From the sequence record OL960581: DNA of 64,000 nucleotides; one strand, written 5' to 3'. This document shows positions 39,651-45,958 of this stretch, piece by piece; positions within the stretch are counted from its first letter, which is position 1, and every line of letters starts with the position of its first letter. Source of the stretch: Escherichia phage vB_EcoM_SA20RB. Both the position numbers and the translations under genes were made by a program. A model generated the notes under the pieces. The model ran no database searches. It saw only the letters and a program-made list of their open reading frames with translations, and had not been told where the DNA came from.

Positions 39651-40121
39651 TTAATCATGTTTCCACACCCCATCGGTATTTGACCAAAGTCGCTGATTAT
39701 CTGATCCTCGCCACAGCTTTTTGGTAGGAAGATTTTTCTCATACTTCCCATCAATAATAACATCAACATATTTAAGCATTTCTAGTTGTTTAATATCTTC
39801 AAATTTATATCCTGTCCACAACCAAATGCTTTTATTGGAATAAAGATTTTTTACTGTTTGAACCACAGAGTGAATAACATCTCGGTTATCAGGATAGAGA
39901 GGGTCTCCTCCAGTTATAGTTAATCCTTCTATATAATCATTATTCAAACATTCAATTAATTGTTCTAGTGTTTCACCAGTGAATGGAACACCATTTCTAG
40001 CATTCCATGTTGATTTATTATAACACCCTTCGCATTTATGCAAACAACCTGTAACGAAAAGAACTGTCCTGCATCCAGGACCATTAACAAAGCAGCATGG
40101 GTATATTCTGTCATAATTCAT
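39651..40121 (-). CDS. nrdG: anaerobic ribonucleotide reductase activating protein NrdG (radical SAM, 156 aa)
   Basis: Cys cluster CLHKCEGC; 156 aa; ATG start. Confidence 0.8.
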   Translation of the reverse strand: MNYDRIYPCCFVNGPGCRTVLFVTGCLHKCEGCYNKSTWNARNGVPFTGETLEQLIECLNNDYIEGLTITGGDPLYPDNRDVIHSVVQTVKNLYSNKSIWLWTGYKFEDIKQLEMLKYVDVIIDGKYEKNLPTKKLWRGSDNQRLWSNTDGVWKHD

Positions 40122-40950
40122 TTATATATTTCCAATTATAGCCTTCAACACTTTTACGTTCGCCATTTAAACATTTTAAAATATTTCCTTTGCTAGAAAT
40201 ATTAAAATATTTTGCTGCGTCTGGTATATAATTAAATGTTTTTAAAAGAACACCATCTTTATATGCGCCAAATAAATTAAGAGTATATTTTTCTCGAAGA
40301 CGCTGATGTTTCCTTTTCATAACCTCAGGATTTGCATACGCCAACCTCAATGAATTTCTATGTTTTTCTTTTACTTCAGGTTTTTGCATTGCTAACTTAG
40401 TTAGCCTGGAAATTTTATTTCTAACTTCGTCAGTTTTCATTGCATTTGACAAATTTAATAAAGTTTTATTTCTAACTTCAGGTTTTTGCATTGCTAACTT
40501 AGTTAGTTCTCTATGTCTTTTTCTAAAATCGTCATCCTTCCATATATTTTTCGATAATTTTGACATAGAGCGGTGAAATAATTCCTTTTCACTGGAATAC
40601 AATTTAAAAATTTCATCCAATTCATCCGCATTAAATCTATCGGTATTCGAGTTTATCATTCTATGAAAGGCATAACACATTTTACTATTGCTTGTTTTAG
40701 CTAAATAGTAATGAGCTAACGCATGGTCATAATATGACAAATTAACAATATTCCATTTATCTGTTTTATATTCAGGAAATATAGATTTGGGAAGCACGTG
40801 ATGTGCTTCCGTTTTTCCTTTTATTTTAGGATTATTATAATTTTTTGTTATCAAATCAACATATGACAATAGTAAATCATTATTTTCTTCAAATATTAAA
40901 GCTAATTTATCATTCACAAAATCGCAAGGATAAAATCTATCGTAATTCAT
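40111..40950 (-). CDS. HNH homing endonuclease-like protein (mob-type, 279 aa)
   Basis: HNH motif AHHVLPKS..YYDHALAHYY; repeated KLAMQKPEV modules; ATGA overlap with nrdD stop. Confidence 0.6.
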   Translation of the reverse strand: MNYDRFYPCDFVNDKLALIFEENNDLLLSYVDLITKNYNNPKIKGKTEAHHVLPKSIFPEYKTDKWNIVNLSYYDHALAHYYLAKTSNSKMCYAFHRMINSNTDRFNADELDEIFKLYSSEKELFHRSMSKLSKNIWKDDDFRKRHRELTKLAMQKPEVRNKTLLNLSNAMKTDEVRNKISRLTKLAMQKPEVKEKHRNSLRLAYANPEVMKRKHQRLREKYTLNLFGAYKDGVLLKTFNYIPDAAKYFNISSKGNILKCLNGERKSVEGYNWKYINEL

Positions 40951-42238
40951 TGGTGTTTAACCCTATGCATGATTTCTTTATTTTTTCCGAGATTAAATCC
41001 GCGTTCATTCGGATTTCCCAAATAACCACAAGTTCTTCTTATTGTGTTCATCTTTTTAGGATCAGTTTCTCCACAAATAGAACAAACAAATCCGTTTTCA
41101 GTAGGAGTCATTTCATGTGTACTTCCACATGTAAAACATTTATCTACTGGCATGTTAACACCAAAATAATCTAAATGTTGTGCAGCATAATCCCATACAG
41201 CCTCAAGACCTTTTAAGTTATTTTTCATATCAGGAAGTTCAACATAAGAAATGTGACCACCTGTCGCAATGAAATGATATGGGGCTTCGCGAGAAATCTT
41301 TTCAAATGGAGTGATATTTTCTTCTACTGAAACATGGAAACTATTAGTGTACCAGCCTTTATCAGTAACATCTTTTACACTTCCATATTTTTCAGTATCA
41401 AGTTTACAGAAGCGATAACAAAGGTTTTCAGCAGGTGTAGAATACAAGCTAAAAGCAAAACCAGTTCTTTCAGTCCACTGCTTAAGACGAGCATTCATTT
41501 TAGTTAAAATTTCCTGTCCAATATCACGACCGACAAGAATATTCAATTCGTGAATACCAATGTATCCTAGGGACACTGAACTTCTACCGTTTTTAAATAA
41601 CTCAATTATGTCGTCATCAGGTTTAAGACGAACCCCGAATGCACCTTCTTGGTAAAGAATAGGAGCAACAGTAGCTTTAACTCCTTTTAAGGAACTAATT
41701 CTACACATCAATGCTTCAAAACATAAATCCATTCTCTCATTGAACAATTCGGCAAATTTCTGTTCATTGAACTGTGTTCCAATATAAGAATCTAATGCGA
41801 TACGAGGAAGATTCAGTGTTACAACACCAAGATTATTACGTCCATCAAGAATTTCATTACCAGTCGAATCTTTCCATACGCTCAAGAAACTACGGCAACC
41901 CATTGGAGAAACAGGAACAGATGAACCAGTGATAGCTCTATTGTTCTTAGCTGAAATAATATCAGGATACATCCTTTTGCTTGCACACTCTAGAGCAAGC
42001 TGCTTAATATCATAGTTCGGATCGTCTTTGTAAAGATTAACACCTTCTTCAACGAACATGACAAGTTTAGGGAAAATAGGAGTTATCCCATCACGACCAA
42101 GACCTTTGATACGATTTTTCAGAATTGCTTTCTGAATCATTCGTTCAGTCCAGTCAGTTCCCGTACCAAATGTAATTGTTACAAAAGGCGTTTGACCATT
42201 AGAGCTGAAAAGTGTATTTACTTCATCATTATATTCAG
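40947..42238 (-). CDS. nrdD: anaerobic ribonucleoside-triphosphate reductase NrdD, exon 2
   Basis: C-terminal glycyl-radical motif RTCGYLG; in-frame with exon 1 after removing 1033-nt intron. Confidence 0.7.
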
Positions 42239-43271
42239 CATGAGTCGCAAATTCATGCCCGTTTATATGAAACAACAAAATTTGGATAGTCCATAGATAT
42301 GCAACGTTCTTTTATAGTGCTAGGATGAAAATTTAGCGCTTTAGCTGCTTCTATATAAGACGTATACTTAATACCGTCAACAACCACATATTCAGGAACT
42401 TTATGAATAGTAGTCTTAATACTCAAAACAAGAGGATGAGTTTCGACTTCACTTTCAGTGCAATTTAAATATTCCGCTGCTTTTTTAAAACTTCTAAAAG
42501 TTTTATTTTTAAGCTTTATCGATACTTGTTTTTTACTTTTTCGACTATTGATATTATTTTGCACATGTTCCTTAGATCTTCCGTTTTTAGCATAATATTC
42601 AGCTACAGAAGATTTTATATTGTTTTTATGAGATTCGGATAACACTTTACCCTTATGAGCATCTCTTAATTTTTGAATATGTTCTTCAGTATCCGGATGC
42701 TTATAAAACTTTTTACCGCCTATGGATTTATTTAAACATTTTTTGCTATAAAAATATTTACGTATGACCTCTTCTTCATGTTTTAATGCATCTTTATAAC
42801 TATCAAATGTTTTTAAAATTATCCATTTAGTAGGTGTATCAGTTTTTAAGCGTTCATTTATATACTTAGATGACGTTGTGTAAGTTTTCCAGTTTGTGGG
42901 CTTGTTTTTAATTGTTCTAAATTTTTTATAACCGATATAAATGTCGCCATTAGAAAACTTAACTAAGTATGTAAATGCGTCTTTATCTTTTATTTTAGTA
43001 CAACGTCTTTTTATCCATTTCATTGTTTCACCTCGTATTCATAAGATAATCTTATTTATACAAGATGACTGCTGCATGTCGCCATGCAGATTAGACTATA
43101 TCTTCATCTTTCGATGCCGGCCGTTTCGAATAGCATTAGCTTCTATTCTACACCGTTACATTCATCACGGTTAGTCGTTAGGCATTTAGTTCAAAAGAAC
43201 ATTTAGCACGGGATTGTCTACTAGAGAGGTTCCCCGTTTAGACCGGTTTTACATGAGCCTGAATTAAATTA
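42239..43271 (-). mobile_element. group I self-splicing intron in nrdD (1033 nt) carrying a GIY-YIG endonuclease ORF
   Basis: conserved core ..CTAAACGGGGAACCTCTCTAGTAGACAATCCCGTGCTAAAT.. on minus strand; junction GAGU|..G|CUGAA restores frame; length equals recalled T4 nrdD intron (1033). Confidence 0.6.
42253..43023 (-). CDS. intron-encoded GIY-YIG homing endonuclease (I-TevII-like, 256 aa)
   Basis: FTYLVKFSNGDIYIGYKKF GIY-YIG motif; lies wholly within nrdD intron. Confidence 0.7.
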   Translation of the reverse strand: MKWIKRRCTKIKDKDAFTYLVKFSNGDIYIGYKKFRTIKNKPTNWKTYTTSSKYINERLKTDTPTKWIILKTFDSYKDALKHEEEVIRKYFYSKKCLNKSIGGKKFYKHPDTEEHIQKLRDAHKGKVLSESHKNNIKSSVAEYYAKNGRSKEHVQNNINSRKSKKQVSIKLKNKTFRSFKKAAEYLNCTESEVETHPLVLSIKTTIHKVPEYVVVDGIKYTSYIEAAKALNFHPSTIKERCISMDYPNFVVSYKRA

Positions 43272-43809
43272 ACTCATACGCCTGGAATGCATCGTATACG
43301 TCTTTTTCTGTTTTAGACTGGGCATAATTCAACGCATCAGCGATTTGCCATTTTTCTGCATCCTCAATATGTTTTGCATAGGTGCGTTTAACATAAGGAG
43401 AAAGTACTTTATCTACATTAGCAAAAGTCGTTCCGCCGTACTGATGTGAAGCAACCTGTGCAGTAATTTGTGCCATAATTGCAGTAGCAACGCCAATTGA
43501 TTTAGGAGTTTCAATCTGTGCATTGCCGAGCTTAAATCCGTTCTCAAGCATTCCTTTTAAATCTACTAAACAGCAATTAGTAAATGGAAGAGCAGGGGAA
43601 TAATCAATATCGTGGAAATGGATAATTCCGCTTTCATGCGCTTTCATAATAAAAGACGGGACCATATTTTTGGCAATGTGTTTAGACACAATACCAGCCA
43701 TAAGGTCCCGTTGAGTTGGAAAAACACGAGAATCTTTATTAGCATTCTCGTTCAAAAGGTCTTTATTAGTTTTATGAATCAATCCTTCAATTTCTTTTTC
43801 AATTGTCAT
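43272..43809 (-). CDS. nrdD: anaerobic ribonucleoside-triphosphate reductase NrdD, exon 1
   Basis: ATG 43807-43809 (ATGA overlap with gene 49 stop); reading frame hits TAA immediately inside intron. Confidence 0.7.
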
Positions 43810-44497: not shown

Positions 44498-44943
44498 TAA
44501 AACGCTCGGTCAGAAAAAGAAATTTGAGTTTCAAGCCATTCAATATATTCTGCTGCAGCTTGCATCAAATTTCCTTCATAACCATCATTATTTTCTTGTG
44601 CAGCTAATTTAGCTAATGCATATGAAATACGTTCACCTTGAAAAGCGGCTTTAGGTTTATGAATAGCTTGATCAACTCGTTCTACAACTTCTTCAATTTC
44701 GCCATTTTCCGCTGATTCAGTATTCCACAAGCACCAATACGTAATTGGCTTATCGTAAATGTTAATAATCTTTCCATCAGAAAGTTCAATTTCAATAATT
44801 CCAGTATCAGGTTCTATGTCGTCTTCGCATTCTTTTGCAAGTTCACGAACTTTAAAGACAGTACCTGCACTAAGTTCTGGCCAGTAATTACACAGCCCTT
44901 TATCAGCACGATTAATTCTAAACCACTTATCTACTATAATCAT
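44497..44943 (-). CDS. hypothetical protein (148 aa), T4 pin/49.x region
   Basis: ATG 44941-44943 with GGAG SD (track start TTG 44961). Confidence 0.45.
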   Translation of the reverse strand: MIIVDKWFRINRADKGLCNYWPELSAGTVFKVRELAKECEDDIEPDTGIIEIELSDGKIINIYDKPITYWCLWNTESAENGEIEEVVERVDQAIHKPKAAFQGERISYALAKLAAQENNDGYEGNLMQAAAEYIEWLETQISFSDRAF

Positions 44944-44984
44944 GTCCCATCTCCATATCAATTAAGTCATTTATCGTAGGTTCA

Positions 44985-45013
44985 TTATATACTGTTTCTT
45001 CATCAGTGTAAAC
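44985..45013 (-). promoter_or_regulatory. T4-type early promoter
   Basis: plus attata 44985-44990, gtaaac 45008-45013. Confidence 0.5.
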
Positions 45014-45065
45014 CGGTTCTTCCGGCTCTGGCTCTACAGTTTCCCATCTAGCCGCCCACCAAGGT

Positions 45066-45275
45066 TTAACCCCGAAGCTTATTAAGTTCTTCATAATCAA
45101 TCCAGGATTCTAATCCTGATGGCAAATCAGATTCAATTTCCCAAAGAAGTTCTTCAATTTTATGAAGACGATCTAGTTCTTCAGCAGGAATAGTAACCAT
45201 TGACGGAGCTCTTGCTACACTAATATCGTAAATCATATTTACCCCAGTTTGACCATGCAATCGCCGTATTTCCAT
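45066..45275 (-). CDS. hypothetical protein (69 aa)
   Basis: ATG start. Confidence 0.4.
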   Translation of the reverse strand: MEIRRLHGQTGVNMIYDISVARAPSMVTIPAEELDRLHKIEELLWEIESDLPSGLESWIDYEELNKLRG

Positions 45276-45454
45276 TTAGAAATAGACTTTTCACCGTTAG
45301 AATAATAAACTTCGAGTTTAGCACGATTATTTTTAATTTGAATAACCTTTGCTGTCATCAAAGTTCCATACCCGTAATAAACTGCAACCTCATCACCTAC
45401 ATATACCGCGCTTCCGCGGTAGTCATGGATATAATCAGTTCCTTCGAGCATCAT
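45239..45454 (-). CDS. hypothetical protein (71 aa)
   Basis: ATG start overlapping nrdC stop. Confidence 0.4.
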   Translation of the reverse strand: MMLEGTDYIHDYRGSAVYVGDEVAVYYGYGTLMTAKVIQIKNNRAKLEVYYSNGEKSISKWKYGDCMVKLG

Positions 45455-45714
45455 TTAAAGTATTCCCGCAATTGGTCAAATCCACCAATATGACTTCCAT
45501 CAGGAGCAAATACTTGCGGCATTGTCAAACCAATTTGAGTATCACGACCTAGTTTCGTCAGAAGCTCAGCGATTTTCTCATCATCAAAAACACCTTTTTC
45601 CGGCATAATGTTGATAAATTCAAACGGCTGTTTCTTCACAGTCAAAAGACGTTTTGCATTATCGCAATACACACATTTGTGGATGTTGCTATCATAACCA
45701 TATACTTTAAACAT
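45451..45714 (-). CDS. nrdC: thioredoxin NrdC (87 aa)
   Basis: CVYC active site; 87 aa. Confidence 0.75.
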   Translation of the reverse strand: MFKVYGYDSNIHKCVYCDNAKRLLTVKKQPFEFINIMPEKGVFDDEKIAELLTKLGRDTQIGLTMPQVFAPDGSHIGGFDQLREYFK

Positions 45715-45715
45715 A

Positions 45716-45958
45716 TTATTCCTTAATTCCTAGTACTTGTTTAAAAGTCTCGTCGTAATCAAGACTTTGACCCGTTTGTTCTTTATGTTTGTATATAATA
45801 TCACTTACTTCTGATAGCATATTTTTATATGAACGAGTTAAAGCAGATTTAAGCACGCTGTATCTATCAGGAAATTTACCGTGTTCATTATAATACGCTA
45901 TTGCTAATTCACGGACTGCCTTTTCAGCAATCTCCATATATTCTTTACGCTTGGTCAT
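45716..45958 (-). CDS. hypothetical protein (80 aa)
   Basis: ATG start. Confidence 0.45.

Follow-up and report, generated by a model that had tools for sequence, protein, structure and literature searches.

Evidence for a second, diverged lineage of the nrdD group I intron in the T4-like Escherichia phage vB_EcoM_SA20RB

The closest described systems are three introns of phage T4 and its relatives. The T4 nrdD (sunY) intron splices, and it is 1033 nt long (T4 44815..45847), a length that the first-pass annotation of the DNA studied here had given correctly. The td intron lies in another host gene at another insertion site, has a P2 helix and carries the open reading frame (ORF) of I-TevI in its P6 loop, and the nrdB intron of T4/RB3, in yet another gene, carries an HNH endonuclease ORF (I-TevIII) in P6. 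Here we analyse nrdD in a 64,000-nt stretch of Escherichia phage vB_EcoM_SA20RB (record OL960581), hereafter the window, which is Tequatrovirus (T4-like phage) DNA; all positions are those of the window. We conclude, with a probability of about 0.9, that nrdD is interrupted at the T4 insertion site by a group I intron of 1045 nt (43271..42227, minus strand) with the junction GAGU/AUGAAG and an I-TevII-like ORF, and that this intron belongs to a second, diverged lineage. The biology is ordinary: mobile group I introns of the T4 type that encode a GIY-YIG endonuclease are a known kind, to which this element belongs, though it is not the T4 allele. The first-pass annotation had the kind of intron and the 5' splice site right, but its 3' site was off by 12 nt, and its length and junction codon were wrong as a consequence. 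Literature searches found no published description of this nrdD intron variant.

On the minus strand, the gene order is gene 49 (endonuclease VII, by Pfam matches), nrdD, an HNH endonuclease gene and nrdG, which is identical to the order in T4. The interrupted nrdD spans 43809..40947. In the list of ORFs, its frame opens at 43809, stops after 181 codons at 43264 (AYELI*) and resumes about 1 kb downstream, just as the first-pass annotation had described. The three parts of the interrupted gene are as follows.

43272..43809, minus strand: nrdD exon 1, 538 nt (179 codons plus 1 nt), taken from the ORF list
42227..43271, minus strand: group I intron, 1045 nt, beginning UAAUUUAAUUCAG and with its terminal G at 42227; inserted DNA when compared with uninterrupted alleles, in collinear alignment with the intron of T4 nrdD, 72.4 bits against RF00028
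40947..42226, minus strand: nrdD exon 2, beginning AUGAAGUAAAU, from the translation of the joined exons

The 5' splice site had been placed after GAGU, with exon 1 ending at 43272, and this position stands: the exon sequence AUGAGU pairs in P1 as it does in T4. The insertion site, between ...UAUGAGU and AUGAAGU..., is likewise that of the T4 nrdD intron. At the 3' end, the first-pass annotation had closed the intron at 42239, after ACUCAUG, which gave a length of 1033 nt and made the hybrid codon a Ser. When T4 and uninterrupted nrdD alleles are aligned with the window, the 3' end falls at G42227 instead; this makes the intron 1045 nt long, with Tyr (U plus AU) as the codon at the junction. 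Because the first and last inserted bases are unlike the flanking exon bases, the boundaries of the inserted DNA (43271..42227) are unambiguous. Uninterrupted nrdD reads TATGA(G/A)T directly followed by ATGAAGT in phage RB14 and in 22 IMG/VR contigs (exact pattern), and a 300-nt query of the ligated exons gave a one-place match in 620 GenBank phage records. The junction TATGARTCTGAATATAATGATGAAGT, which follows from an intron end at 42239, occurs in 0 IMG/VR contigs, against the 22 with the T4-type junction. The joined exons translate into 605 aa, reading ...AYE-Y-EVNTLF... over the junction, and align with T4 NrdD (PDB 1h78) free of gaps once the 12 disputed nucleotides are dropped.

The consequences of the shorter intron can be followed in the protein. 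If 1033 nt are cut out, the 12 nt CUGAAUAUAAUG stay in the exon, and NrdD would read AYE-SEYND-EVNT, where T4 NrdD has AYE-Y-EVNT and a more distant NrdD has LEY-EINT (PDB 9d3x); the crystal sequence of T4 NrdD (AYEY-EVNT) is without the four-residue insert. The nrdD region is indeed 12 nt longer than that of T4 (2863 vs 2851 nt); however, the extra nucleotides are small indels in P7.2, P8 and P9.1, where P9.1 has 9 extra nt forming an inner hairpin, and the exon is not their source. The final 12 nt of the intron as we delimit it have their homologues in the final 12 nt of the introns in T4 nrdD and td.

The structure of the 3' domain points to the same terminal nucleotide. Its elements, together with a predicted long-range helix that spans the ORF, are listed here.

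42237..42259, minus strand: P9.2 hairpin of 7 bp, GGCAUGA, loop AUUUGCGAC, UCAUGCU; also found by RNAfold; it holds the stop codon of the intron ORF and position G42239
42227..42236, minus strand: 3' tail of 10 nt, GAAUAUAAUG, with the terminal G at 42227
43017..43031, minus strand: 5' strand of the long-range helix, GUGAAACAAUGAAAU, over the ORF start codon; 15 of 15 positions pair with 42281..42267
42267..42281, minus strand: the opposite (3') strand of this helix, AUUUUGUUGUUUCAU, close to where the ORF ends

A 7-bp P9.2 hairpin and a tail are common to the T4 td, nrdB and nrdD introns, in which they stand just before the known 3' splice sites, with the hairpin 9-10 nt before the terminal G; the 3' sites of these comparison introns were verified by stop-free spliced translations or from the T4 record. 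The equivalent tails, each ending at the splice site, are GAACAUAAUG in td, GAACACAUUG in T4 nrdD and GAACAUACG in nrdB, the last being one nt shorter than the 10-nt tail of the window. Over the four introns, all 28 stem cells of P9.2 (28/28) hold standard pairs, and five of the seven pairs are changed on both sides. These pairs were counted on a manual alignment, since MAFFT alignments of the 3' domain put a gap inside the stem. The loops are also related, being 9-10 nt long with a common U and CGA, and AUUNNCGAC is found in both the window and td. G42239 pairs with a C within this stem, and the equivalent T4 position is an A.

A 3' end at G42239 has points in its favour, since position 42239 is a G, the 12-nt difference keeps the frame, the length would equal that of T4 and the adjoining CUGAAU could form a 6-bp P10 with AUUCAG next to the internal guide sequence. 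Nevertheless, NrdD would gain four residues found neither in T4 nor in the distant NrdD, the junction occurs in no IMG/VR contig whereas the other one is matched by 22 contigs and 620 GenBank phage records, it assigns to the exon 12 nt whose homologues are intron in T4 nrdD and td, and it takes as terminal a nucleotide that is paired in a covarying stem. We therefore regard a 1033-nt intron ending at 42239, with SEYND in NrdD, as very improbable. The position of the 3' splice site is set by homology and the P9.2 hairpin, and not by P9.0 or P10. A possible 2-bp P9.0 (AU with AU of J7/9) suits G42239 just as well as G42227, and P9.0 was dropped as a discriminator between the two candidate sites because two registers each suit three of the four T4-type introns.

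Two other pairings of the 3' domain were considered and set aside. For T4, RNAduplex pairs the 3' tail with P7.1 and P7.2 (GUAGGGU/ACUCUAC), but the window is without this pairing, and the same nucleotides are in the covarying P9.2. The window tail GACUCAUGC can form 9 bp with the exon 1 end GUAUGAGUU (duplex of -22.6 kcal/mol); this appears incidental, as T4 has 5 bp and the tail strand is used by P9.2. Meanwhile, the long-range helix has a counterpart at the homologous place in T4 (14 of 15 pairs), and duplexes equally good were found in 4 of 500 shuffles for the window and 12 of 500 for T4. This helix probably closes the loop of the ORF, which would bring the 3' domain to the core. Michel and colleagues (1992) reportedly found sunY splicing to be dependent on a long-range pairing that involves its 3' domain, and the long-range helix would fit this.

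The ribozyme core was recognized both by covariance-model search and by a helix-by-helix check in this and the T4 intron, guided by the known T4 helices. The first-pass annotation had called for such a search, and RF00028 matched 43340..43072 on the minus strand with 72.4 bits (gathering score 50; E = 4.5e-18) when 42000..43500 (1.5 kb) was scanned with laxer filters. The alignment places P3 to P9 well; the P1 and P2 columns of the model land on exon sequence, are unreliable and were ignored. The core sequence that had been pointed out, CTAAACGGGGAACCTCTCTAGTAGACAATCCCGTGCTAAAT, is present on the coding (minus) strand within 43242..43201.

43272..43277, minus strand: 5' strand of P1, AUGAGU, the last 6 nt of exon 1
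43253..43258, minus strand: internal guide sequence GCUCAU (intron 14-19), the same sequence in T4
43072..43246, minus strand: ribozyme core with P3, P4, P5, P6, P6a, P7, P7.1, P7.2, P8 and P9 (intron 26-200), without P2; each of these helices is formed by both the window and the T4 sequence

P1 consists of AUGAGU (43277..43272) paired with GCUCAU (43258..43253), that is, 6 bp with a U.G at the junction, identical to T4. P1, P3, P4, P5, P6, P6a, P7, P7.1, P7.2, P8, P9 and P9.1 all form in both introns, which also share the lack of P2, the presence of P7.1 and P7.2, and an ORF that begins after P9 at the P9.1 hairpin. Nine pairs are altered on both sides relative to T4: two in P3 (U-A to C-G and U-A to G-C), two in P4 (A-U to C-G and C-G to G-C), three of the four pairs of P6a, and two in P7.1 (U-A to A-U and C-G to G-C). 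P7.2 and P8 are entirely different stems. Judged from the sequences, such a compensatory pattern is the mark of a ribozyme whose function was maintained during sequence drift.

This pattern also bears on the question of whether the element splices at all. In the best-matching phage records, two nrdD coding sequences and a 'homing endonuclease' are annotated without an intron, and functioning split ribonucleotide reductase genes are known in T4-like phages (PMC3653736); nrdD might thus be a split gene encoding two polypeptides, like the nrdA of Aeh1 that is split by mobE, with an element that no longer splices. However, the ribozyme fold is intact and has been kept so by compensatory substitutions over about 26% divergence, with P1 and the terminal G in place. 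The reading frames offer little to a split gene either: the frame of exon 1 extends just 2 codons into the intron, and the sole upstream start for the frame of exon 2 is a TTG within the 3' end of the intron ORF. The site, moreover, is that of the T4 intron, for which the T4 RefSeq record gives a two-part join. We give a split nrdD hardly any credence, and by analogy with T4 the intron would be spliced.

The intron ORF is I-TevII-like, as first proposed, and it is intact.

42253..43023, minus strand: intron ORF of 256 aa, an I-TevII-like GIY-YIG and NUMOD1 homing endonuclease by homology and Pfam
43028..43068, minus strand: P9.1 hairpin, -17.3 kcal/mol, with the Shine-Dalgarno sequence GAGG (43034..43031) of the ORF in its 3' strand
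43053..43060, minus strand: TATAAATA, in the 5' half of P9.1; the single occurrence in the intron, with the same motif at the homologous T4 place

Its product can be aligned with T4 I-TevII from end to end, with 56% identity (144 of 257 residues), 2 gapped positions and E = 1e-101, and the YIG, HEE and LNKSIGG blocks are conserved in this alignment. Both Pfam domains score above their cut-offs, NUMOD1 with 25.3 bits against 22.8 at residues 171-193, and the ORF also matches phrog_314, 'homing endonuclease' (3.6e-29). A search of 5.8 billion proteins returned two clusters only, that of this ORF (64 members, about 99% identical) and that of I-TevII (38 members). The exact protein has been deposited as 'homing endonuclease' for several GenBank phages.

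The start of the ORF is preceded by the P9.1 hairpin, whose fold is markedly better than chance (z = -5.6; an equally good fold in 0 of 200 shuffles). Its homologue in T4 is CCUCGUAU/AUACGAGG, and in both introns the hairpin buries the Shine-Dalgarno sequence and contains TATAAATA, which matches the T4 late-promoter consensus. Homology with T4 suggests that the ORF is regulated through this hairpin and late promoter. For the T4 intron endonucleases, translation from the early pre-mRNA is blocked, and late transcripts start within the hairpin and free the ribosome-binding site (PMC2988022). A putative I-TevII operator is mentioned in the same paper, and TATGAATACGAGGTGAAAC, at 43028..43048 on the minus strand upstream of the ORF, corresponds to it; by eye, this sequence resembles the intron-less target TATGAGTATGAAGTAAATAC at about 13 of 19 positions, and the upstream sequence of T4 is identical.

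Several observations weigh against the interpretation given so far. The terminal G at 42227 is present, but P10 there has 4 bp only (UGAA/UUCA). CUGAAU, directly after G42239, is a perfect complement of AUUCAG (intron 8-13, directly 5' of the guide) and would give a 6-bp P10 with the frame kept. We rejected this pairing as the P10 of a site at G42239, because its genuine complementarity is outweighed by the junction evidence; since it would be an ideal P10, G42239 may see minor, low-level use as a cryptic 3' splice site. Splicing and the exact ligation point are argued from homology and structure, and the activity and target of the endonuclease are presumed to be those known from T4. SegE_GIY-YIG barely exceeds its Pfam cut-off (26.6 bits vs 25, residues 9-86). 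In addition, a default Rfam gathering scan of the entire 64-kb window reported no family at all. This last result is explained by the speed filters of the default scan, which drop the nrdD intron. The first-pass annotation had counted the lack of a fold in a covariance-model search as evidence against the intron; under default settings such a result is therefore a false negative.

A single blastn alignment over the whole nrdD region shows that the locus is collinear with that of T4, with 84.6% identity. The identity is unevenly distributed: it is 95.9% in exon 1, 74.1% between the intron's 5' end and the start of the ORF, 63.5% in the ORF (nucleotides), 61.5% in the 3' tail, 75.6% in the first 45 nt of exon 2 and 95.6% in the remainder of exon 2. 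The first-pass annotation implied that the intron was the T4 one; this does not hold, as the core is 74% and the endonuclease 56% (amino acids) identical. The two introns share the insertion site, P1 and guide (AUGAGU/GCUCAU), the P9.2 hairpin with a 10-nt tail, and a full-length homologous endonuclease, whereas they differ in length (1033 nt in T4, 1045 nt in the window), in the stem sequences of P6a, P7.2 and P8, and in P3-P6, where the window matches td instead. With the T4/RB3 nrdB intron, the window intron shares the family, the P9 sequence, the P9.2 hairpin and the GAACAUACG tail.

The distribution of the two nrdD introns among phages is also distinct. Megablast with the window intron found 43 phage records in which 80% or more of the intron is covered, with 99.5-99.9% identity in those full-length matches that were sampled; T4 records were reached only via a 42-nt match to the td intron. 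Megablast with the T4 intron found 25 records at least 99% identical, none with the window variant. The introns therefore form two distinct lineages at one site. Among deposited phage genomes, the best matches to the 1.3 kb around the intron, e.g. ELT1, JK45 and vB_EcoM_SP1, show 99.0-99.6% identity.

Among close relatives, some carry the variant intron and others lack it. In 215Ecol030PP, a deletion of about 570 nt lies within the intron ORF, and this copy keeps the ribozyme and the 3' domain intact; in 236Ecol005PP and vB_EcoM_F1 the intron ORF is split. Such decayed copies of the intron lie in PP328843.1 (1580..2200) and PP434423.1 (2878..3649), one with the deletion of about 570 nt and another with the ORF in two pieces. 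The exons next to the insertion carry marks of their own. The first 45 nt of exon 2 (42182..42226, minus strand) have 11 differences from T4 with the protein sequence at the junction unchanged, and the other exon parts are about 96% identical. The cleavage site of I-TevII lies 13-15 nt downstream of the point of insertion. Since this cut falls within the diverged tract, the tract looks like co-conversion, and the diverged 45 nt are probably a co-conversion tract around the region of endonuclease cleavage. At the end of exon 1 (43272..43277), both intron-bearing lineages have GAG, and most intron-less alleles have GAA (GAAT, Glu); presence of the intron and GAG in the exon go together because that G pairs with the guide C in P1.

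The decayed ORF copies, together with the marginal GIY-YIG match and the fact that T4 itself carries a defective I-TevIII (PMC2988022), lend some support to the idea that the intron splices but carries its endonuclease as a non-mobile passenger, which would be inactive or serve only as a repressor or maturase, and that the intron spread by ordinary recombination and not by homing. However, the ORF is of full length and about 99% identical across its 64-member cluster, and it aligns from end to end with active I-TevII, including YIG, HEE and LNKSIGG. Moreover, the 76% identity in 45 nt of exon 2, against about 96% in the other exon parts, is what co-conversion during homing would leave. A passenger endonuclease thus appears unlikely, though it deserves more attention than either a split gene or the shorter intron, and we retain the view that the intron is mobile.

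Part of the core has a closer relative in td than in T4 nrdD.

43201..43242, minus strand: 42-nt stretch from P3 to P6 (intron 30-71), matching the td intron of T4 at 42 of 42 nt; 9 of these nt are different in the T4 nrdD intron

The nine differences of the T4 nrdD intron in this stretch are partly compensatory pairs. Further downstream, J6/7 to P7 is identical to td over 17 nt, the tail CUGAAYAUAAUG differs from that of td at one position, and the P9.2 loop (AUUNNCGAC) is similar; the J6/7-P7 segment and the 3' tail of the window are both closer to td than to T4 nrdD. The td intron nevertheless differs in having P2 and in the placement of its ORF, which lies in the P6 loop instead of after P9, and I-TevI is a different GIY-YIG enzyme from the product of the window ORF. 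At about 20% divergence, which is that between T4 nrdD and td within the 42-nt stretch, finding 0 differences in 42 nt is unlikely by descent (0.8^42, roughly 1e-4; a rough estimate), and an exchange of sequence between td and nrdD introns is therefore plausible. Domain shuffling between T4 introns was reportedly described by Bryk and Belfort in 1990. It is possible, and we offer it as a tentative idea that may well prove wrong, that a second natural nrdD lineage competes for the site of the T4 lineage, that it acquired its P3-P6 from the td intron of the same genome, or exchanged it with that intron, through recombination between introns, and that the target preference of its endonuclease has shifted to match its exon 2.

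The following course of events can be proposed for the intron. The P3-P9 core would attack the 5' splice site with a free guanosine, and the 3' domain, consisting of P9.2 and the 10-nt tail ending at G42227, would be brought to it across the ORF, 771 nt in length, which starts past P9 at the foot of P9.1 and whose loop is probably closed by the long-range helix between its start and its end. The exons would then be joined as ...UAUGAGU/AUGAAGU..., restoring the 605-aa NrdD. By analogy with T4, the endonuclease would be silent in the nrdD pre-mRNA, where its Shine-Dalgarno sequence is buried in the hairpin, and would be expressed late from the TATAAATA promoter within that hairpin. It would cut intron-less nrdD alleles in exon 2, and repair would copy the intron in.

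At least 43 deposited genomes of T4-like phages contain this lineage, against 25 records with the T4 allele, and with the corrected boundaries (1045 nt, GAGU/AUGAAG) nrdD can be annotated in them as a single protein of 605 aa. The natural pair of introns, about 74% identical at one site, supports the secondary structure of sunY, including its 3' domain, through compensatory changes. Meanwhile, the pair of endonucleases, 56% identical and apparently with the same target, could be used for studies of GIY-YIG specificity and of intron competition. As a default Rfam scan of 64 kb misses the intron, the lack of a covariance-model hit is unfit to refute introns of this kind.

Between nrdD and nrdG, the window has a 279-aa ORF resembling an HNH/NUMOD-type homing endonuclease (40111..40950, minus strand; phrog_655, 5.7e-37). 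T4 has mobC at the nrdD-nrdG junction, and the ORF of the window is 38% identical to mobC over 60 aa only; the junction is thus occupied by another free-standing endonuclease than in T4. In some relatives, e.g. 236Ecol005PP, no gene lies there. The HNH ORF begins with about 40 nt (MNYDRFYPCDFVN, 40950..40910, minus strand) that duplicate the 5' end of nrdG (MNYDRIYPCCFVN, 40121..40081), and T4 mobC likewise duplicates about 25 nt of the nrdG start. It appears that the start of nrdG was copied by the inserted endonuclease genes together with its ATGA stop-start overlap with nrdD.

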